From NCBI GenBank assembly GCA_016844925.1, contig JAERTI010000036.1:11053-75052 (forward strand): 64,000 bases of DNA, in the 5' to 3' direction. Each line of letters begins with the position of its first letter. Positions within the stretch are counted from its first letter, which is position 1. A program made the position numbers and the translations under genes. Below the pieces are notes generated by a model that had not been told where the DNA came from, ran no database searches, and saw only the letters and a list, made by a program, of their open reading frames with translations. Positions 2,594 through 25,213 of the stretch are shown in pieces. The stretch is from Candidatus Uhrbacteria bacterium (GTDB lineage Bacteria; Patescibacteriota; Patescibacteriia; UBA9934; GWF2-40-263).

Positions 2594-5500
2594 CTATGAA
2601 GTTGGTGCTGGTGGAATATTTGTCAGATCAATATCTGGCTCAAGCCCAACCTCCTGAGAGAAGTCGATGGGCTCGGTGAGTTGTGAGTAGTCGATGGGAC
2701 GAATTTCCATCGGCTTGAATCCTTCTTTTTGGAACGTAGCGAAGTATTTGTTTGGTCCGAGCATGAACGCATAGCGCCCCTTGCTATCAGTAATTTGTGT
2801 CTCGAGTACCTTGTTGTATTTCGGCTCGAAGATACGCGCGACCACACGCGAGAGCGGACGACCTGTGTAGGAGTCGTACACCACACCCCAGCTAATAGGT
2901 TTTCGAGGTCGAGCCAGACGCTTGGCCAAGAAGAATACTCCTAGCTGAATGCCGATCATGCCGAGCGAGAATGGTGTCGGTCGAATGGCACCAAACGCTC
3001 CGGCTGCAAGAACACCTCCGAAGGCCAACACATGCTGAGCCGTGCGCAGCCACTTGCGTCGTATAGCTGTTGTAGACGCTTGCGCCACATCCTGCTGCAC
3101 AGGATCAAGTGGAATGTTGGCTGAGATGACCGCACTAGCGTCCGTCACCTCAATAGGCTCTGAGTGGTAGACATCTAAGTACTGTCCATCCACTTTCTCC
3201 CCTGCTAGATACTGTGATGGGAATTGATATCCCGATTTTGTGACTTGAATGCGATACCTTCCTGTATCAACCAAGAAGAAGTATCGCCCCCCCTTGTCGG
3301 TAACCCGACTCTTGACGAGACGACCAGGTAACCCGGCCGCCTCGTCTTGTTGTGTGACTTGAAAGAGACGTACCACCGCAAGATCCACTGGGGTCTTGGA
3401 GATAGCGTTATAGACGACTCCGTAACTCTTCCTGCGTCTGCGCCAGAAAAAGAGAATTGGCGCTGTGAAAATGTATTGCAGGAATGGAAGGAAATCGAAC
3501 GCGACAGAAAGTACGACCACACTCGCCCCCGCCGTAACAGCAAGTGTGGGAACAGATACTTCTGCGGCCTCTTCTACACCGGGGAGCTCTCGAATGGTTT
3601 CGAGGCCCTCTTGTACTGCCTGGATTGGTTCAAGATCGAGCACGGTCTCGATCACACTAAGAGCAGCTGCCGTGTCATCCACTTCCTCAGCTTCAGGTTC
3701 TTCGTCTTCAGCTTCGGCTTCAATGATTGGCTCCTCGTCCTCTTCCTGCTCGTACGCTGCAAGAACAATGCGAGGATTCACAATCGCATTTGCGACCACA
3801 AGCTGACCCGTGCTTGTAGTCTCAAAGCCTTCTGCTTCGACTTCGACAAGATAGGTGCCGTTTGGCACATACCAAGCGAATGACCCGTCTGAGGAAACGG
3901 TTGTTGGGTTGAACTGGTTATATGGGGACCCATCCCACACCACCTGCTCACCATCAACGATTTCAAAGAGCGTAACGGTTGCGTTTGATACCGTTGTTTC
4001 TTCACCATCGATGACCTGGAGTGCGTAGCCCTGAGAGACAACGCGCAGGTATGAAGAAACAAATTCAGATGAACCATCGTCGTATTCGACTTCTATGATC
4101 ACCTGTTGAATGCCTTTAGCACTCGGTACGGCAACATCCGCGTTGTAAAGAACGCCTGTCTCGTCTAGAGACAGAAGGAATAGATCGCTGCCTATGGACA
4201 GCTGAACGCTGCTAACATCGTCAGCAACTTCTGACACGGGAATCTGCACACTCAACGTGCTTGTGGGAAGCACCTCAACCACACCGGAGCTGGTGGTCTC
4301 GAGCGTAAGAGATCTCTCCGCGACAAGATAACTGATGTCACTATCGGTTAGTTCACCTTCCTCCGCACCCAAGGAGGTAGGTTCACTCACGCTAGGACAA
4401 TCGATTGGACATGAGGCTGATGATTCAGACTCAGAACACACACCGTCTCCACAGGAAACCGCCAGACCTGAAGAGTCGTCTGTCTCTGAGATGTCATCAT
4501 CTCCTGTCACATCACCGGATCCACCTGATTCAGAATCTTCTTCGGACCCCTCCGTAGAATCTTCTTCACCTTCTTCGGTGGCCGGCTCTTCCTCTGAAGG
4601 AACTTCCTCCTCAGAGGGCACCTCTTCTACTGGAGCACTTGGTAACCCAGATCCAAGCGCACCAGAAGCAAACTGCCCTGCTTCATCGTAGGAAAAAACT
4701 CCAAGGTAATAAGTAAGATCAGCTGTTAAACCAGACAACGTCCCTTCTTCAGTAAGATCGTCGAGGCCTGTCGTGCAATCTTCATCTGTTGGACCGTCTG
4801 GATAGTCATCTTCACAAACCAACACGAGAACTCCATCCAAATCTTCATCCGTTGGATTTGTCCAAGACAATGAAAGGGACTCAACGCCGGACTCTACCAG
4901 CAAGTCTGAAACATTTGCCGGTGGCAAATCTTCCTCTGTCGTGAAGGTGTTATCTGCAGAAAACGCTTGATTCGAGAATTTGTCTGTCGAAACAGCTTGA
5001 AAATGATATTCCGTCTCATCATCAAGTCCCGTCAACAAAACAGAGTGTGATGTGACATATTCGCCGTCATATCCAGTAGACTCATAGGTTTCCGTAAGCC
5101 CATAAGAGACCACACTGTTGGCATCTTCATTGGTCGTCCAAGTGATTCGCGCCGAATCATACGTGATATCAATCACTTCAATATCTGAAATAACAGGCGC
5201 TGTTTGATCCAACGTTGTGAACACGAGCGTGTCTGAAATTCCGACATTAGATGCACTGTCAGTTGAATTGGCGTTGAAGTAATAGGTTTCCCCCTCACTC
5301 AACCCAGTCAACGTTAGACTGTGGGATGTCACGAACTCACTGCTGTAGAAGTTATCTAGATCGACATACTCATCTAAACCAATATTCACCCTTGAATCTG
5401 ACGATTCATCGGTTGTCCAACTCACCACAGCCGAAGTTGTGCTCACGGACGAAACCTTGAGTCCAGAGAGTACTGGCGCTGTGGAATCAGGACTTCCGCC

Positions 5501-17945: not shown

Positions 17946-18099
17946 CACGCACACCCCACCCCCGATACGCATCGGGGATTTTTTTTGTGCAAAATAAATA
18001 CCCGCACTTGCTTCCGAAGAAGTGTAGTGCGGGGGAGTGGAGCCACGCGCTGGCTACACACTCAGTGCCCGACGTGCATCAGGCGGGTGTCCTGTCGGA

Positions 18100-19209
18100 C
18101 TAGGCCGCGAAGCGGTTCTCGCTCGCCGCCTCGACCATCTTGGCCACCTGCAGGCCGTAGGGCTTGTCGGTGTCCAGGTTGGTCGGGAAGAAGGACACGG
18201 CGTTCTCGCCGCCGTTGGTGTCGATCTCCTCGATCAGGCCGGCCGTGTGGCTGGCGCGGGTGATGCGGGGCAGCTCGACGTCCTCGCCCAGGTCGGCCAC
18301 CTTCACGCCGAAGGCGCTGTGGGGGATGAGCTGGATGGTGTCGTCGTCGATGCCGACGCTCACGGGGATCGCGGCGTACTCGCCGTCGTCCAGGGACAGG
18401 ATGAAGTTGTCGGTGTTGTCGACGCCCAGGGAGATCTCGGTCACGTTGCCCGGGGTCTGGAACTCGGCCCAGGCCAGCTCGTCCATCTCGCCGGAGAGGT
18501 ACTTGCTGATCTGCTCGGCGCTGACCACGTTCACCACGTTGGTGCCGTAGACGGACTCGAGCAGGAAGCGCGGGGAGTTGGCGTTGACCAGGGTGTTGTC
18601 GACGGTGTCGACGAAGTCGGAGCCGATGACCTTGTAGGACTCCGTGTCCTTGGAGATCATGCCGACCTTGGTGCGGACGCTGTCGCGGCCGATCAGGAGC
18701 AGCGTGGTCGCCTCGTTCTCGGAGCCGACGATGGTGCGGGTCTCGGAGTCGACGTACTGGTCGAAGCGCGCCTGCATGGCCCGCTCGGTCCAGCTGCCCT
18801 CGTAGTCCTGGCCCCAGACGCCGAAGTCGACGTTCTGGTCCATGGCGGTCACGGCGAAGCCGTAGCGCCAGTTCTTGCCCTTGTAGCGGCTCAGCAGCTC
18901 GGTCTTGTCGAGCGTGGCCTGGGCCTCGGTCAGGGACATGCCCTCGGGGGTGTCGACGATCGCGACGATCTGCCGCTTGTGGTCGCTGGCCTTGCTGTCC
19001 TCGCTCAGCTTGAGCGAGTTGTCGCCGTCGGCCACGATGGCCACGGGGTTCAGGCCCTGGTCCTGGATGAAGTCGGTCACGTGGTCGAACTGGCCCTCGA
19101 CGGCCAGGAGCTTGACGCCGCTCTTGTCCTCGTAGGTGTCGAGCTTGAGCGAGCCGATCTTCGGCTTCGTGGCGGCGAGGAGGGCGAGCGAGATGACGAT
19201 CCGGTTCAT
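18100..19209 (-). CDS. GC-rich secreted hypothetical protein (~369 aa) with signal peptide MNRIVISLALLAATKPKIGS
   Basis: ORF track 18100..19287, trimmed to the Met before the signal peptide. Promoter TTGACA..TATAGT at ~19300-19330 with a ~120-nt 5' UTR. The + strand 402-aa ORF 18037..19245 is antisense junk (G/V/D/H-rich). Confidence 0.6.
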   Translation of the reverse strand: MNRIVISLALLAATKPKIGSLKLDTYEDKSGVKLLAVEGQFDHVTDFIQDQGLNPVAIVADGDNSLKLSEDSKASDHKRQIVAIVDTPEGMSLTEAQATLDKTELLSRYKGKNWRYGFAVTAMDQNVDFGVWGQDYEGSWTERAMQARFDQYVDSETRTIVGSENEATTLLLIGRDSVRTKVGMISKDTESYKVIGSDFVDTVDNTLVNANSPRFLLESVYGTNVVNVVSAEQISKYLSGEMDELAWAEFQTPGNVTEISLGVDNTDNFILSLDDGEYAAIPVSVGIDDDTIQLIPHSAFGVKVADLGEDVELPRITRASHTAGLIEEIDTNGGENAVSFFPTNLDTDKPYGLQVAKMVEAASENRFAA

Positions 19210-19471
19210 TGGGAGTTCTCCAGTGTCCGCAGGCGGTTTGGTTGATGCCTTTGGACGTCTCTGCACACCAGTGAACTGCACTGGCACAGTGTTGCCCGTA
19301 TTCGGGACGAACGGCGGGAATACTATAGGAACCCTCTTAGGGTGTCAAGAGATCTGCCCGGGGATAAGTATTTAGCCCTTGTTTTAGGAAAAAAATCGGT
19401 TTTTCTCAGTAAAGTGATTAAGTGCAACGTTTTTACCTCAACGATGAAAAGCGATGCTACAATAAACTTCT

Positions 19472-20554
19472 ATGAAAGACCTTCTTATCCTCCTTGGCAT
19501 CGCCGGACTGCTAGTCGCTTTATTTACCGGCGCCATTTGGGCCGGCTCACGCATGAGCCAGACTCCAGATCTAGAAACAACCCAAACTATAGAACCCGAA
19601 GGAGCACCTGAGCTCCCATACCTGGGAACCATGCCTCCTATAGAAGGTATAGACGGTTGGATTAACAGCAACCCCTTAGTCCAAGACGACTTAGCTGGAA
19701 AAGTCATCCTCATCGACTTCTGGACATACAGCTGCATCAATTGCATCCGCACCCTCCCATATATCCAGTCCTGGCAAGAGAAGTACGCAGACGACGGCCT
19801 GGTCATCCTTGGTGTCCACGCACCAGAGTTTAATTTTGAAAAAGTGTATGAAAACGTTTTGGCAGCTGCTGTGCAGTACGGCCTCACGTACCCCATTGCT
19901 CAAGACAACAACCACACCACCTGGCGGAACTTCAACAACCGGTACTGGCCCGCCAAGTATCTCTTCGACCAAGACGGCAACCTGCGCTACTACCACTTTG
20001 GCGAGGGGAGTTATGAGGAGACCGAAGCCGCCATTCAACAACTCCTCTCTGTCAAAGAAGAAATGACCGAGGAGCTGGCCGTCGATCGTTCTGGCATCAA
20101 CTCTCCCGAGACCTACTTTGGCTACTGGCGCACAGAGAACTTTGCGAGCCCTGAAGGAGTCGTCGAGGACACCCCCACCACCTATACCAACCCGCAGACC
20201 CTCCCACTCAACCATTGGTCGCTCTCAGGCGACTGGTCTATTGAATACCAACACAGCGAGGCGCAAACCTCTGGCGCACGCTTTGCCTTTCACTACAGTG
20301 CCGGCGTTGCGAACCTCGTCATGGCCACGGCAGACGGCACGCTCCAAGACATTGTCGTCTACCTAGACGGCCAAGCGGTCCCAGCAGAACTCCTGGGCGC
20401 CCACACCGTCCGTGACGAGCTCACCGGCGGCACATTCATCCAAGTAGAGTTCTCAGATCTCTACGAACTCATCGCCGGAGAGCCTGGTGAGCACCTTCTA
20501 GAGATCGAGGTCCTTGAACCAGGCCTGCAGATCTACGCGATCACTTTCGGTTGA
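19472..20554 (+). CDS. Membrane-anchored thioredoxin-like (TlpA/DipZ-type) thiol-disulfide oxidoreductase with CxxC (WTYSCINCIR) and a C-terminal beta-rich domain
   Basis: ORF track; redoxin motif recognised by eye. Confidence 0.65.
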   Translation: MKDLLILLGIAGLLVALFTGAIWAGSRMSQTPDLETTQTIEPEGAPELPYLGTMPPIEGIDGWINSNPLVQDDLAGKVILIDFWTYSCINCIRTLPYIQSWQEKYADDGLVILGVHAPEFNFEKVYENVLAAAVQYGLTYPIAQDNNHTTWRNFNNRYWPAKYLFDQDGNLRYYHFGEGSYEETEAAIQQLLSVKEEMTEELAVDRSGINSPETYFGYWRTENFASPEGVVEDTPTTYTNPQTLPLNHWSLSGDWSIEYQHSEAQTSGARFAFHYSAGVANLVMATADGTLQDIVVYLDGQAVPAELLGAHTVRDELTGGTFIQVEFSDLYELIAGEPGEHLLEIEVLEPGLQIYAITFG

Positions 20555-20617
20555 CGTAGCTGCTTTTTCCCCCTAAAGTCGCCATTCGCACCTTCCAGCT
20601 GAACCCGAGGAGACTAC

Positions 20618-21883
20618 GTGACGCAGAAGCTGTTCTATCCAGACAAGGCGCTGAACTTCAGGCCGCTTCCGGAAGTGATGACCCTCATCACCAAGATGGG
20701 GCAGGAATTTAGGCGCCAGACTGAGGTGATTCACCTCCACGAGGACGACGCCTTCTACTTCGCCTACCTCCACACCTACCAGAGCCCTGACGCTCTAGGT
20801 TCGATGGAGTTCAATCAGCGCATGTCCAGATTCGTCGGCCTCGCCGTCGATATCGTGGAGCTCATGATCCGAGAGCACTTCCGCCCCATGGGCGACCTTC
20901 TCTCACTTCACAGCGACATCGCCAACTGCCTCGAACCCATCGAGCTGCTCATCATCGCCACCACCGACCCGGGTGCTGGCGCTTCCCCCCTGGACTTCAG
21001 AAGGCACTTCGAGGCGAGACGGAACCTCGCCATCGCCCTGCAGATCTACGAGATCGAGAAGTGTGACCCAGAGTACTGGGTCGCCAAGGACCTCAGGCAC
21101 ATCGAACAGCTCTGCTGGGGGCGCCTCTTCCTTCGCGGTGTTTCACAGACCATCTGGTTTACCACGCAAATCCCGGAGGATGGGAAGAGTCCCTGCAACA
21201 ACATCAAGCTCGCGTTTGCCAAAAGGCGCGCCAACCGCTTCAGAAGAGAATTCGATCCGACAAAGGGGCCCGTCATGGTCTCGTCCATGATGTGCCGCGT
21301 CGTAAGAATCTCGCGGAATCGTCGACTCATCATCTACGTCGTCAACCGCCGCAAGCGCATCTTCTCCACCCTGCTCAAGATGGAGCGTGGACGAGAACTG
21401 CGTGACCGTCGCGGGTGGAAGTACGTGGTTGTAGGGGTACAGACTGGCAACAAGATCCGCCCTGCCAAGCGAAGCGACGCGGAAGCGTTTGTTGCCTTCA
21501 CGCAAGAGCAACTCTGGAATCCACCTCTGTTCCACGAACCCGACGAATCCGCAGAGAACCCTGACAGCGACAAGGACTACTGGGACCGCAAGATCGTCGG
21601 TCGTTACCATCGAAAAGACAACGGTCGAGTCGTGGGCGCTGCCACCGAACAGCTGGTCACCACCATCCGTGACCATCTCAGCGACAAGTACTCACGAAGC
21701 AATCGCAACCACGAGATGTATCGACACCTTCAGGTGCTCAACCACCTCGGCCCTCTCTGGTTCCCCTCCACACGAGAGCACCTCCAACACCTCAAGTCCG
21801 TCCGCCTCCCAGGCTACGGCGTGAACTGGTACGGCCCCGCCACCAGGGAGACGCTCTGGAACTGGTGGCTCAGCCAGCTCTGA
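20618..21883 (+). CDS. GC-rich hypothetical protein (421 aa), GTG start
   Basis: TTGACG-N17-TAAAGT at 20552-20585; GAGGAG-N5-GTG; terminator CCCGCTTACGCAAGGCGGG+TTTTTTG at 21890-21915. No confident domain assignment. Confidence 0.5.
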   Translation: MTQKLFYPDKALNFRPLPEVMTLITKMGQEFRRQTEVIHLHEDDAFYFAYLHTYQSPDALGSMEFNQRMSRFVGLAVDIVELMIREHFRPMGDLLSLHSDIANCLEPIELLIIATTDPGAGASPLDFRRHFEARRNLAIALQIYEIEKCDPEYWVAKDLRHIEQLCWGRLFLRGVSQTIWFTTQIPEDGKSPCNNIKLAFAKRRANRFRREFDPTKGPVMVSSMMCRVVRISRNRRLIIYVVNRRKRIFSTLLKMERGRELRDRRGWKYVVVGVQTGNKIRPAKRSDAEAFVAFTQEQLWNPPLFHEPDESAENPDSDKDYWDRKIVGRYHRKDNGRVVGAATEQLVTTIRDHLSDKYSRSNRNHEMYRHLQVLNHLGPLWFPSTREHLQHLKSVRLPGYGVNWYGPATRETLWNWWLSQL

Positions 21884-21972
21884 GCCCCACACCCCCGCTT
21901 ACGCAAGGCGGGTTTTTTGATTGACAACCATGTAAGAAACAACTACGTTGACCACCCTGAACAGGAGAAAGG

Positions 21973-22296
21973 ATGGATCGGTTACAAGAGCTGGATGACC
22001 AGCTCTACGCACTTCACCATGACCATGTGCTTCACGGTGCCACGCTCGTCGAACACCACGAAGACGGCACGCAGTCGCGTGGACGTATCAGCAGCACAGG
22101 ACACGGATACGGTGAACTCGGACTATGGTGGCACAACGAAGATGATCGTCATCGACAGGCCTGCCTGAGTCACAGCAGCTGGAACTTCTCCAGAACGGGG
22201 AACGAGATTCGTTTCAGTAGGACTGGCCCTGACCGGAGAAGCTTCGACATCCCCCCCGGGGACGTCAACCTCTACGTCATCACCATCGCGGACTAG
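21973..22296 (+). CDS. GC-rich small hypothetical protein (107 aa, His-rich)
   Basis: TTGACA-N17-TACGTT immediately after the upstream terminator; AGGAGA RBS; terminator ending TTTTTTCTTTT at ~22300-22330. Confidence 0.45.
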   Translation: MDRLQELDDQLYALHHDHVLHGATLVEHHEDGTQSRGRISSTGHGYGELGLWWHNEDDRHRQACLSHSSWNFSRTGNEIRFSRTGPDRRSFDIPPGDVNLYVITIAD

Positions 22297-22391
22297 CACC
22301 ACGCCCAATACGGGGCGTTTTTTCTTTTATTCGCTTCCTGCTGGCGCTCTTTGCTTTCACCCGGTACAGTGATTTTAAGGAGGTAACACAC

Positions 22392-23306
22392 ATGCGTCAC
22401 GTGTACCTGGCTGCTCTTGGCACGCTCTGCCTGCTCCTCACCAGCTTCCACATCCCGAAGGACTCCACCCTGGAGCTCGGCGTGGAACACGCGAGCACCA
22501 GCGACAACGCGACGAGCCGCACCACGCGGCAGCAAGACGAGATGCTGCAGACCCTCGTCTCCCTGGCTACATACAAGCAGCGCTTGGAAGAAGCCTGCGA
22601 GGCGTTCCTGATCTCAGACGCCACGTCCGAAGATCTCTCCGCGCTCCTCACGGTCGCCGGCTCTCACCGCGACCCCGCCGCCGTCTTCGTACGTTGCGGC
22701 CTGGAAGAAGATGATGTCGAGGATCTCTTGATGAGCATGCTCAGTGACCGCATCGAGGAAGGGGACCGAGAGGCCTCCCGCATCGCCTTCGCCCTGGCTG
22801 GCACACAGTGTTCCCAGACGCCGCTACAGATCGACCGCGAGTGCGAAGACGCCGCCGATGAACTGGAGTGGCCCGTGACTCGCTGGCGCTCTTGCATCAA
22901 GGACGGCTACAGCAGCTACAAGCAGTGCAGCCTCGACGTCCTGACCGAGCACGGCGTGAGTGCCACCAAGGTGGAGGACGCTTACTTTGGCAAGTACGCC
23001 AAACAGACCAGCGACCTGGTGCACGCAGCCAAGGACGGAAGCGCCGACCCTCACGAGGTCGTCGACGAACTCATGCGCCGCGCCGAAGATCGCGTCCTGA
23101 TCGAGACCATGGGCACGGGTGCCATGGGCGCCTCCAGCTACATGATCTTCGCCCTCTCCCAGAACCTGAAGTTCCAGGGCGAGACGGAACTCCAGGAAGA
23201 GATGCAGCCCCTGCTCGACTTCTGGATCCACCGCTGCGACCTGGACCAAACCGGAGCCCTAGACGACCACGAAGTAGACGACATCCAACTCGCCTACAAC
23301 GACTGA
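22392..23306 (+). CDS. GC-rich secreted hypothetical protein (304 aa; signal peptide, acidic, Cys-containing)
   Basis: TAAGGAGG-N8-ATG; terminator GACCCCCTGAGGGTC+TTTTTCTTTTTT at 23306-23335. Confidence 0.5.
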   Translation: MRHVYLAALGTLCLLLTSFHIPKDSTLELGVEHASTSDNATSRTTRQQDEMLQTLVSLATYKQRLEEACEAFLISDATSEDLSALLTVAGSHRDPAAVFVRCGLEEDDVEDLLMSMLSDRIEEGDREASRIAFALAGTQCSQTPLQIDRECEDAADELEWPVTRWRSCIKDGYSSYKQCSLDVLTEHGVSATKVEDAYFGKYAKQTSDLVHAAKDGSADPHEVVDELMRRAEDRVLIETMGTGAMGASSYMIFALSQNLKFQGETELQEEMQPLLDFWIHRCDLDQTGALDDHEVDDIQLAYND

Positions 23307-23385
23307 CCCCCCTGAGGGTCTTTTTCTTTTTTGTTTAATCCCTGCCAACCAAACAAAAAGCCCTCGCTTTCGCGAAGGCTTTCTG

Positions 23386-23402
23386 TGGGGCGGCTAACGG
23401 GA
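23386..23402. repeat. 17-bp exact direct repeat of the 3' end of tRNA-His (TGGGGCGGCTAACGGGA = complement of ..CCCGTTAGCCGCCCCA), 151 bp downstream of the gene; att-like scar
   Basis: Identical string at 23554-23570 inside the tRNA gene. Confidence 0.7.
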
Positions 23403-23553
23403 GTCTCACGTCGCTTCGCTCCTCCAGGGGCTTGTGCCCCTAGGACGGCCTCCGGCCTGTACCCCCAGCATGTAAGGGGGTATCCCCCTTACCATCCCCC
23501 GTTCGATTCCCATTAGCCAACAGAAAACCCCCGATAAATTCGGGGGTTTTCTA

Positions 23554-23630
23554 TGGGGCGGCTAACGGGAATCGAACCCGTAATACCAGTACCACAAACT
23601 GGTGTGATAACCGTTTCACCATAGCCGCCA
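23554..23630 (-). tRNA. tRNA-His (anticodon GTG) with encoded G-1 and CCA
   Basis: Manual fold: G-1, acceptor GCGGCTA/TAGCCGC, C73, anticodon stem CCAGT/ACTGG with loop TTGTGGT. A hairpin terminator CCCCCGAATTTATCGGGGG lies at ~23527-23552. Confidence 0.8.
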
Positions 23631-23668: not shown

Positions 23669-24388
23669 CTATTCGATGGAATCAAGCATTGAATCAAGCT
23701 CGAATGTATCAGTGATCGCCTTTGCCTCAAGGAGCGCCGCCTCTGCCTCTTCTGAGTAACCGACGGTAGCCATGAGGATCCATGCATGTTCGCCATCATC
23801 TATATACTGAGACCTCACAGCTGGAGCTTCTCCGTCTCCGGAACATGGCTTTTTACACCCCCACTCGAGAACATAGCCATCCCGTCCCTTAAACTCACCC
23901 GGGGTCAAACTCTGATAAATGTCACTTGCTGTGATCCCAGCATTTGGAGAATCTGGATTCGCCTGAATATTCTCCACTGCTTCTTCAAGTGTCTCCTTGG
24001 ACGTAGAAAACTCTGTCACCACTTCATCGAAACTTCGCTCACCTTTTTCAATATCGAATATCCTCAAGAACACAGGGCTCTCGGTAAGGGGCACTTCTGG
24101 ATCTGCGTTCACGACGGTACTGCGGATAAGCATGCCATTTGCTCCACGTGGGTACACAATCGATTCTAGAATGTGCCAATCAACAGGCACGACCATGGAA
24201 TACCCATCCCCGCGCACGAGCGTCTCATCTTCTGCGTCGCGCTCGAGCTCTGATTCATAAACAAGACCCTGTGACTCTTGTTGATCTGTTGAGTCTTCCG
24301 TGTCTCCCCCCGTCCAAATGACAACTCCCACAACAAGCAGAACAAGAATGGCGGCACTTAGCAGGTATGATCGATTATCAAATTTCAT
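23669..24388 (-). CDS. Membrane-anchored acidic extracytoplasmic protein (239 aa), tandem paralog of the next gene
   Basis: N-terminal TM; shared motifs with 24395..25213 (VVP.DW, C..(P/A)C, W(I/V).(I/L)(M/T).(V/T)GY, A.A..DTFEL). Confidence 0.6.
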   Translation of the reverse strand: MKFDNRSYLLSAAILVLLVVGVVIWTGGDTEDSTDQQESQGLVYESELERDAEDETLVRGDGYSMVVPVDWHILESIVYPRGANGMLIRSTVVNADPEVPLTESPVFLRIFDIEKGERSFDEVVTEFSTSKETLEEAVENIQANPDSPNAGITASDIYQSLTPGEFKGRDGYVLEWGCKKPCSGDGEAPAVRSQYIDDGEHAWILMATVGYSEEAEAALLEAKAITDTFELDSMLDSIE

Positions 24389-24394
24389 AGAACG

Positions 24395-25213
24395 TTAATT
24401 GAGTTCAAAGCTATCCATAACCTCTTGCGCTTGCGCGAGGAGCTCATCTGCTTGATCGGAATACGCCGTGCGACCAGTAATCACCCACACTCTGTCACCT
24501 GCATCAATGTAATACGCAATCATCGCTGGTGGGGACCCTTCGATGTAACACGCCTGCTCACACACAAAGGTATTCATGTAAGCCTCTCGTCCGTCAATCT
24601 GAACTGACTCGAGCTCCACCGTAATGTGGGCATCCATGTACGCATCAATCTCTGACTGATCAGCCTCACTCAATTCGCCCCCTCCACCGAATAAGTAAAC
24701 CTGCACACCAAACCGAGCTCCATCTTCATCCATGGCCCATCTATCTACAACAGAATCCAGTGTCCACTCATCTCCTTTCTCATAATCCTCCACATGCACA
24801 GAAACTTCTGTTGGGTGCCCATAGGCCTCCTGTGCATCGAGGTTCTTGATCCACCCATGTGAGTAGCGACCACGACTTGAACGAGTGCTGCGCTCGCTTG
24901 CGCTCAGAACAAGCCAATCCTCTGGAACCAGGAGTGAAAATCCTTCACCAAGAACCACCGTCGGATCTGCGGCATCACGTTCAAGAGACAGCTGAGCTGG
25001 CTCTTCTTCTGTTTCCACCTCTTCTTCAGCTTCTTCTTCTGAAAGTACCTCCTCAATAAGATCCTCAATCTCTTGCTCAAGAAGCTCAATCTCCTCAAGA
25101 GCTAACTCTGGTGTTTCCAGAGGCGTTGGCTCAGCTTCCGGGGCCTTCACAACAGAAAGTGCCCAGACACCAATAGCCAGCAAGACGAAAAATAAACTGA
25201 TATTTCGAAACAT
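24395..25213 (-). CDS. Membrane-anchored acidic extracytoplasmic protein (272 aa) with Glu-rich coiled region, tandem paralog of 23669..24388
   Basis: ORF track plus shared C-terminal motifs. Confidence 0.6.
   Translation of the reverse strand: MFRNISLFFVLLAIGVWALSVVKAPEAEPTPLETPELALEEIELLEQEIEDLIEEVLSEEEAEEEVETEEEPAQLSLERDAADPTVVLGEGFSLLVPEDWLVLSASERSTRSSRGRYSHGWIKNLDAQEAYGHPTEVSVHVEDYEKGDEWTLDSVVDRWAMDEDGARFGVQVYLFGGGGELSEADQSEIDAYMDAHITVELESVQIDGREAYMNTFVCEQACYIEGSPPAMIAYYIDAGDRVWVITGRTAYSDQADELLAQAQEVMDSFELN

Follow-up and report, generated by a model that had tools for sequence, protein, structure and literature searches.

A probable, very divergent RelA/SpoT-type synthetase encoded at a conserved chromosomal locus of Candidatus Uhrbacteria

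The window analysed here is a stretch of 64,000 nucleotides from contig JAERTI010000036.1 of a Candidatus Uhrbacteria bacterium. Our subject is a gene on its forward strand (positions 20618-21883) whose 421-aa product is probably, in identity and in general mechanism, a very divergent and previously unclassified member of the RelA/SpoT homologue (RSH) synthetase superfamily. RSH enzymes are central bacterial stress-signalling enzymes and, as toxic small alarmone synthetases (toxSAS), growth-arrest enzymes. The RSH-like gene begins with GTG after the sequence GAGGAG and is followed on the same strand by two further open reading frames (ORFs), one for a His-rich protein of 107 aa (21973-22296; 9.3% His) and one for an acidic, Cys-rich protein of 304 aa (22392-23306). 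An earlier note on this DNA had presented the three ORFs as a GC-rich block beside a tRNA-His repeat, each gene with its own promoter and terminator. All three were found where that note had placed them, and they are real genes: the 421-aa protein has full-length homologues, and the ratio of nonsynonymous to synonymous substitutions (dN/dS), evaluated against the 94%-identical relative at the related locus L005, is 0.14 for the RSH-like gene and 0.18 for the 304-aa gene. The RSH-like gene is under purifying selection. The GC content of the block is indeed higher than that of the whole window (59% compared with 54%), but other stretches of the window reach 62-67%. The remaining window is ordinary chromosome, with genes for PolA, Pol III delta, PNPase, RmuC, an H+-pyrophosphatase, an M23 peptidase and a recombinase with XerC/D-like domains.

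Upstream of the RSH-like gene, a promoter-like site on the forward strand (20551-20579; TTGACG-17 nt-TAAAGT), with 9 of 12 matches in a consensus scan, overlaps the stop codon of the preceding thioredoxin-like gene; its promoter function is predicted from the sequence. The idea of one promoter per gene was borne out only in part, as no site for the 107-aa or the 304-aa gene passed the scan. Terminator-like structures were confirmed. On the forward strand a GC hairpin with a T-run lies within about 10 nt of each of the three ORFs, with energies of -8 to -11 kcal/mol: at 21894-21912 (T-run to 21918; -10.9 kcal/mol) after the RSH-like gene, at 22301-22318 (T-run to 22328; -10.7 kcal/mol, z-score -3.6) after the 107-aa ORF, and at 23305-23320 (T-run to 23335; -8.0 kcal/mol) after the 304-aa gene. 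An Rfam scan gave no match within the three-gene block.

The 421-aa protein is made of two parts. Residues 1-170 (20618-21127) form an all-helical, acidic and family-specific N-terminal domain with an isoelectric point (pI) of 5.5, while residues 171-421 (21128-21883) form the putative RelA/SpoT-type synthetase domain, whose pI of 10.5 and net charge of +21 agree with the basic C-terminal half described before. No match to the protein was found in Pfam, NCBIfam, PADLOC or PHROG; scanning all three proteins returned sub-threshold noise only. In the family alignment the motif NRRKRxxSTLLKLERGRxxxDRRGWKYVVV is followed by AEQLVTT and then by NHxxYR. These motifs resemble those of RelA/SpoT synthetases, and the resemblance was tested in four independent ways, by structure, by profiles against PDB sequences, by Pfam and by profile-profile comparison.

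For the structural test, an AlphaFold2 (AF2) model was built from 21 sequences (pLDDT 93, pTM 0.91). The best 23 Foldseek matches to this model are all small alarmone synthetases (SAS), with probabilities of up to 1.0; SAS and Rel proteins rank first by two structure-comparison methods, and structurally the protein comes closest to the non-toxic SAS1, SAS2 and RelP. The fold of the RSH synthetase domain, a Pol-beta-like sheet with RSH-specific helices, is present in the protein. When the family profile was compared with PDB sequences, E. coli RelA, B. subtilis Rel, RelQ and YwaC were found at E-values of 0.04-0.14, and the profile of the catalytic domain found RelQ (2be3) at an E-value of 0.012, with RvK..S..K, D..G and EIQI.T aligned. 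The full-length PDB profile search was dominated by 7rdr, a designed helical repeat protein, which matched the helical N-terminal domain, was the single PDB sequence match of that domain and was treated as a compositional or repeat artefact. In Pfam, 3 of 77 distant family members match PF04607 (RelA_SpoT), the best with an E-value of 5.4e-4.

The profile-profile comparison was performed with hhalign against nine canonical synthetase domains, namely those of E. coli RelA, three long RSHs and five SAS from phage-collection records. The family domain profile aligned with them over 110 columns, from RxKxxxSxxxK through ExQxRT, at a probability of 93.5% (E 2.3e-7). Against the long RSHs the probability was 87% (E 4e-6) and the alignment reached NHxxYR, which was paired with AHWxYK, while a reversed-template control gave 0.3%. 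A local hidden Markov model (HMM) made from the nine canonical domains fails to detect the family. Structure prediction and profile comparison of 20618-21883, which the earlier note had proposed, thus point to the RelA/SpoT-type pyrophosphokinase branch of the nucleotidyltransferase fold, and the hesitant guess of a nucleotidyltransferase-like protein turned out to be in the right direction. By alignment, the Arg-rich stretches that had attracted attention would be the ATP-donor motif R244-x-K246-xxx-S250-xxx-K254-xx-R257 and the catalytic D263-RRG-x-K strand of an RSH-type domain.

Residue conservation at these positions was counted over 126 family sequences. In the donor motif (21347-21388, forward strand, as are all the motifs given here), K246 is invariant (126/126), R244 is present in 118 and K254 in 119 sequences, with Arg in a further 6; S250 occurs in 56 and an Arg or Lys at position 257 in 94. 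The motif aligns with those of RelA, RelQ and YwaC. D263 (21404-21406), also found in 126 of 126, aligns with the D..G.R motif of RelQ and RelA, that is, with the Mg2+-binding catalytic Asp of D-x-x-G-x-R; G266 is present in 110 sequences, and position 268 is Lys or Arg in 73. The ATP triphosphate in FaRel2 is contacted by R64, K66, S70, K74 and R77, and an Asp holds Mg2+ (PMC11782079); R244, K246, S250, K254 and R257 have the same spacing, and D263 corresponds to the Asp that holds the metal. E344 (125/126), the first residue of E344-Q-L-V-T-T (21647-21664), aligns with the Glu of EIQIRT. Further on, N364-H365-x-x-Y368-R369 (21707-21724) aligns with AHWxYK of the long RSHs, with His in 117, Tyr in 103 and Arg or Lys at the last position in 103 of the sequences.

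The acceptor side presents a different picture. The G-loop G-Y-x-S-x-H of RSH synthetases carries a Tyr that stacks on the acceptor base. In the family this loop is replaced by N314-P-x-S317-x-x-x-[Y/F]321-x-x-x-K325, which runs from N314 through Y321 to K325 in the window protein (21557-21592) and has an aromatic residue at position 321 in 120 of the 126 sequences. Within the clade of the window protein the acceptor loop is acidic: HEPDESAENPDSDKDYW. Read in this way, the alignments indicate that a complete ATP-donor site (R244, K246, S250, K254, R257) and the Mg2+/catalytic pair (D263, E344) are kept while the acceptor loop is remodelled.

Homologues of the 421-aa protein form 20 full-length clusters with identities of 36-94%, all annotated as 'hypothetical protein', and those with a named source come from Candidatus Uhrbacteria or from metagenome-assembled genomes (MAGs) of the Parcubacteria group. 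A filter-free profile search among 1.84 billion proteins yielded 137 representatives at 50% clustering, nearly all of them 360-470 aa long and spanning the N- and C-terminal halves alike; one distant sequence belongs to Candidatus Magasanikbacteria. The clade occurs only in bacteria of the candidate phyla radiation (CPR), with good sampling in Candidatus Uhrbacteria. IMG/VR, the INPHARED phages and the PLSDB plasmids yielded no relatives, and the literature collection that was searched contained nothing relevant on RSH, ppGpp or toxSAS in Patescibacteria or the CPR. The published RSH classification, with its 30 SAS subfamilies, was built with HMM searches (PMC7229694). Because the clade fails the Pfam model, HMM-based RSH surveys probably miss it.

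The genomic setting was evaluated on 40 related loci (31 distinct orthologues), which were collected by looking up contigs and by scanning genomes and metagenomes. Where the flanks are long enough, the RSH-like gene lies in nearly every locus between polA and a group consisting of tRNA-His, tRNA-Arg, GNAT, xerC and dsbA genes. The syntenic landmark downstream of the block in the window is tRNA-His(GTG) on the reverse strand (23554-23628; ARAGORN and Rfam), and the pair of tRNA-His and tRNA-Arg(TCT) was found in 9 of the 10 related loci scanned, L020 having tRNA-His only. Distant family members stand alone amid unrelated chromosomal genes, for example rpsG/rpsL/fusA or an EPSP-synthase-family gene. 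A TTGAC-N17-TAnnnT-like element, 55-70 nt upstream, accompanies the RSH-like gene in all seven loci that were inspected for it, whatever gene precedes it; the orthologues in L005, L001, L006, L008, L003 and L002 have it at the same distance as the window gene. Sites of the TTGACG-17-TAAAGT type near the block are at chance level (5 found, 4.8 expected). After the stop codon of the RSH-like gene, a hairpin of varying stem sequence with a T-run was found in 14 of 15 loci, L039 being without a compact hairpin. No terminator was found between the thioredoxin-like gene upstream and the 421-aa gene. The recurring upstream element and the terminator after the stop codon together make the RSH-like gene a conserved monocistronic unit. 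The loci show it to be a vertically inherited backbone gene, neither part of a toxin-antitoxin operon nor the cargo of an island.

The local HMM detected no canonical RSH gene in the window or across roughly 0.5 Mb of related loci, which are a small part of each genome, and no alarmone-hydrolase (HD) gene is present in any neighbourhood inspected. Three of the loci, L013, L020 and L021 (CAYHRJ010000022.1, CAZIDX010000006.1 and CAZELN010000006.1), come from third-party annotation (TPA) MAGs titled 'uncultured Gammaproteobacteria', but they carry an Uhrbacteria-type locus from polA to the RSH-like gene, and L021 runs on into xerC and dsbA; the labels are probably wrong. As had been reported, the junction between the first terminator and the next -35 box is compact, with TTGACA at 21921-21926 beginning 2 nt past the T-run. 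A T-run followed within a few bases by TTGAC(A) is seen after the RSH-like gene in the window (21913-21926) and in L005, L008, L020 and L014, and this arrangement looks like a general feature of these Uhrbacteria genomes.

The three ORFs do not form one functional block. The co-occurrence analysis proposed in the earlier note showed that the three proteins are not inherited together across the related loci, so the block as a co-inherited unit had to be given up. The 107-aa ORF, its ribosome-binding site and its terminator make up a 396-bp indel cassette (21934-22329, forward strand), which appears in the pairwise DNA alignment with L005 as one clean gap between near-identical flanks. A search among 5.8 billion proteins found only the 107-aa protein itself. 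It was called as a gene in an independent assembly, it has no Pfam or PDB match even with a three-sequence profile, and it is without the YXXY antitoxin motif. In tblastn and HMM searches of the fetched loci, the next gene after the RSH-like one proved to be a homologue in L020 (26% identity, E 2e-8) and in L039 (43% identity to the L020 copy), two loci that belong to a different tree branch from the window. Overall, about 3 of 30 loci with downstream sequence contain the small ORF and about 27, including L005, lack it. We regard it as a member of a real, patchy and uncharacterised small-gene family whose conserved position hints at a link to the enzyme, and its product may modulate the RSH-like gene. 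It is not an obligatory antitoxin, since it is absent from most loci, the closest relative among them.

The 304-aa protein is clade-specific, with five homologue clusters, and its gene stands directly behind the RSH-like gene in one clade and one other lineage only; elsewhere this position is filled by MazE/PIN, DUF5680 or tRNA genes. Its description as a secreted acidic protein agrees with a pI of 4.4 and a hydrophobic N-terminus that can be taken as a signal or anchor. Seven cysteines are invariant. AF2, run on six sequences, gave an all-helical core of moderate confidence (pLDDT 71), and the structure matches are generic helical repeats only. The thioredoxin-like protein encoded immediately upstream of the RSH-like gene (AhpC/TSA and Thioredoxin_10) looks membrane-anchored because of its hydrophobic N-terminus, and a DsbA gene lies about 4 kb downstream. 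We read the 304-aa protein as exported, disulfide-bonded and not mechanistically tied to the RSH-like enzyme.

Beyond the block, the 17-nt copy of the tRNA-His 3' end that had been pointed out is exact (23386-23402 and 23554-23570). The two copies are 151 nt apart, and the three-gene block lies outside them. The repeat is the 3' strand of a 12-bp helix closing a structured element of about 135 nt on the tRNA strand (23386-23519, reverse), which is derived from tRNA-His: its 3' end copies that of the tRNA and pairs with its own 5' end. The minimum free energy of the element is -66.9 kcal/mol (z-score -3.8), terminator-like hairpins stand on both sides of it, and it reached no Rfam family at the gathering score. 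It may represent a small RNA that arose from tRNA-His, or else the scar of an old att site. The arrangement of repeat and element is conserved in L005, L001 and L006/7/12. The connection of the block with a tRNA att site was not upheld, as the repeat is conserved in the clade, closes the structured element and does not bracket the block. The tyrosine recombinase nearby has XerC/D-like N-terminal SAM-like and catalytic domains, is syntenic and 71-97% conserved, and is read as a chromosomal Xer recombinase rather than an island integrase.

The interval between the 304-aa gene and the tRNA-His-derived element holds a MazE/PIN (VapBC-like) pair in L005 (10373-11003), while its counterpart in the window (23336-23385) is only about 50 nt long; MazE/PIN pairs occupy the same interval in L008, L013, L014, L016 and L019. 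Because MazE/PIN occupancy differs among the loci, the stretch between the RSH-like gene and tRNA-His is a variable hot spot. In L003 (4637-4711) and L016 (9113-9187) tRNA-His is on the opposite strand, and the L003 repeat copy is 1.45 kb away, which suggests local inversions around the tRNA.

In the AF2 model the N-terminal helices H8-H169 have pLDDT values mostly above 90. Residues 1-170 have no detectable relative, and the possibility of a degenerate HD hydrolase was rejected, as hhalign against the HD/three-helix-bundle region of long RSHs gave a probability of 0.4%. Across the family the median pI is 5.7 for the N-terminal domain and 9.15 for the catalytic domain, which exceeds 9 in 58% of members, compared with 5.8-8.7 for the nine canonical synthetase domains. 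The tRNA-targeting toxSAS bind their substrate through a basic patch, and housekeeping SAS are negative at that surface (10.1101/2021.04.30.441581); alarmone synthetases display a sizeable patch of positive charge at the acceptor site (PMC11782079). Judged by motifs and fold, the 421-aa protein would most likely transfer beta,gamma-pyrophosphate from ATP to an acceptor 3'-OH, with the acidic N-terminal domain perhaps acting as a built-in regulator. The acceptor may be polyanionic, such as tRNA or an RNA 3' end, a reading to which we give not quite even credence; GDP/GTP or ATP as acceptor is a lesser but real possibility. We lean weakly to the former because the catalytic domain is strongly basic and the canonical guanine-nucleotide loop is lost.

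CPR bacteria are host-dependent, slow-growing cells. The fullest reading that we can offer, and a doubtful one, is that the family is a deep-branching, non-toxic RSH clade of the CPR that pyrophosphorylates a tRNA or RNA 3' end instead of making (p)ppGpp, as a reversible brake on translation. The N-terminal domain would restrain the enzyme, whose activity the small downstream protein would adjust in some lineages. Several observations weigh against the identification of the protein as a divergent RSH synthetase, or against parts of the picture drawn from it. The 421-aa protein has no Pfam match even at E<=1 and does not reach the gathering score of PF04607; the Foldseek E-values are only 0.03-0.3, and each PDB sequence match is weak on its own (E 0.01-0.14). 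The Arg of ExQxRT is missing in the protein and in most of the family, and the canonical G-loop Tyr aligns in hhalign opposite the variable position 316 (D316 in the 421-aa protein). Because the position of this Tyr is not conserved and that Arg is absent, the chemistry at the acceptor site could differ from that of known RSHs. With 137 clusters the family is rare, an odd fit with a core housekeeping role, and the lean to an RNA acceptor, a weak one, is drawn solely from charge and motif loss. Finally, the small ORF was sought only near RSH-like genes, so that its 'always adjacent' pattern is partly an ascertainment effect.

Among the alternatives, a conventional housekeeping alarmone synthetase, which converts GDP/GTP or ATP into (p)ppGpp or (p)ppApp and stands in for the long Rel in reduced genomes, is somewhat unlikely but deserves serious consideration. 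It is consistent with the RSH-type donor site and catalytic residues, with non-toxic SAS1, SAS2 and RelP as the best structural matches, with a vertically inherited, monocistronic gene under purifying selection amid housekeeping genes, and with the absence of a canonical RSH from the window and the 0.5 Mb of related loci. However, the guanine-nucleotide G-loop GYxSxH is replaced, the clade's acceptor loop is acidic where alarmone synthetases have their large positive patch (PMC11782079), and in overall basicity the catalytic domain far exceeds the nine canonical ones sampled; in addition, no neighbourhood holds an HD alarmone-hydrolase gene, and the family is rare even within the CPR. A single gene with a regulatory-looking extra domain, a basic catalytic domain paired with an acidic partner domain, and a variable segment just downstream that gathers MazE/PIN modules in relatives would also be expected of a fused, auto-inhibited defence sensor of the CapRel type, in which the N-terminal domain restrains a toxic catalytic domain until a phage or host cue sets it free and tRNA is then pyrophosphorylated. 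We consider this improbable, as the gene keeps a fixed chromosomal position with vertical inheritance across orthologues down to 36% identity, its distant members stand among ordinary genes (rpsG/rpsL/fusA, EPSP-synthase-family), no PADLOC match and no copy in the phage, plasmid and viral collections searched were found, and the extra domain is N-terminal and all-helical, whereas that of CapRel is a C-terminal pseudo-Zn-finger with YXXY (PMC11782079).

We see only a small chance that the 421-aa and 107-aa genes are a toxSAS toxin-antitoxin pair in which the small protein neutralises the RSH-like toxin. The RSH fold of the larger protein, the presence of a same-family small ORF immediately downstream in three lineages, and the fact that toxSAS antitoxins are often small, system-unique proteins (PMC7229694) speak for such a pair; on the other hand, L005 is one of the many loci that lack the small ORF and keeps an intact RSH-like gene under constraint, 89 nt with a terminator separate the two genes where those of toxSAS operons overlap, and the small protein has no YXXY motif. 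Another Pol-beta-fold nucleotidyltransferase (cGAS/OAS-like, MenT-like or a terminal transferase), moving a nucleotide and not pyrophosphate, is very improbable: SAS and Rel come first in both structure comparisons, the classical G[SG]...DxD signature is missing (after D263 come R and R/C, with no second conserved acidic residue), and RxKxxxSxxxK, ExQ..T and NHxxYR, which are specific to RSH synthetases, were aligned at probabilities of 87-93.5%. That the three genes are cargo of a mobile island integrated at tRNA-His, as the earlier note implied, is hardly credible. The exact tRNA-His copy adjoining the block, the tyrosine recombinase 3 kb away and the somewhat raised GC content do recall an island. 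Yet only 151 nt separate the repeat from the tRNA, relatives whose orthologues are 64-94% identical have kept it, the block is outside both copies, the RSH-like gene holds its position in loci without the repeat, the recombinase is syntenic and conserved, and the three genes differ in phylogenetic distribution.

The reading of the protein as a divergent RSH synthetase can also be placed against the known systems. It has in common with RelQ/SAS1 and RelP/SAS2 (PDB 5dec, 6fgk, 6ewz, 2be3) the RxKxxxSxxxK motif, the Asp on the strand that follows, the ExQxRT Glu and the H..Y motif, but it shares only 13-17% identity with them, is about twice as long, fails the Pfam RelA_SpoT model, has NPxS...[YF]...K in place of GYxSxH, is much more basic in its catalytic domain, and is extended at both ends, by a helical N-terminal domain (about 170 aa) and by a further C-terminal segment. 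When compared with the toxSAS FaRel2, PhRel2 and CapRel, the spacing of the ATP contacts and the catalytic Asp are identical to those of FaRel2, the catalytic domain is basic, as is needed for tRNA binding, and a candidate regulator lies within the same polypeptide, as in CapRel. The candidate regulator is, however, an N-terminal helical domain and not the C-terminal pseudo-Zn-finger with YXXY of CapRel. In known toxSAS modules the toxin gene and its cognate antitoxin gene stand in a conserved bicistronic arrangement, often with overlap (PMC7229694), unlike the 421-aa gene, which is monocistronic, has no conserved antitoxin gene and a varying downstream neighbour (304-aa gene, MazE/PIN, DUF5680 or tRNA), and was absent from the mobile elements searched. 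The long RSHs (Rel, RelA, SpoT) differ in having an N-terminal HD hydrolase or pseudo-hydrolase, to which the N-terminal domain bears only the 0.4% similarity probability given above, and the short post-catalytic extension of the 421-aa protein has no predicted TGS-, ACT- or ribosome-binding-type domain.

The combination is unusual: a fixed locus in an ultra-small, uncultured lineage with a reduced genome, a protein in which the ATP-donor side appears kept and the acceptor site rebuilt, and a new regulatory-looking domain. The protein is a concrete candidate for a new acceptor specificity within the RSH family and a starting point on growth control in CPR bacteria. If the RNA-acceptor reading is true, RNA pyrophosphorylation would be housekeeping regulatory chemistry and not toxin chemistry alone, and this would be relevant to a published speculation in which the synthetase domain originally had RNA as its acceptor (10.1101/2021.04.30.441581). 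The locus also gives reason for caution, as tidy promoter-gene-terminator modules beside a tRNA repeat can mimic an island and yet be backbone.

Some minor observations were made elsewhere in the window. On the reverse strand, 23669-24388 and 24395-25213 encode tandem paralogues (30% identity, E 7e-23) whose products have a pI of about 4.1, N-terminal hydrophobic segments and no Pfam match; the GC content at third codon positions (GC3) is 0.45-0.47 in these two genes compared with 0.64-0.85 in the neighbouring genes. Also on the reverse strand, 18100-19287 encodes an acidic 395-aa protein with no Pfam match, a GC3 of 96.5% and a 402-aa antisense ORF. Between the DUF3307 gene and this 395-aa gene, L005 carries an IS1595-family transposase (4477-5265) that is absent at the corresponding place in the window (17946-18099). 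For a small genome, the swing in GC content across the window, between 38% and 67%, is unusual.

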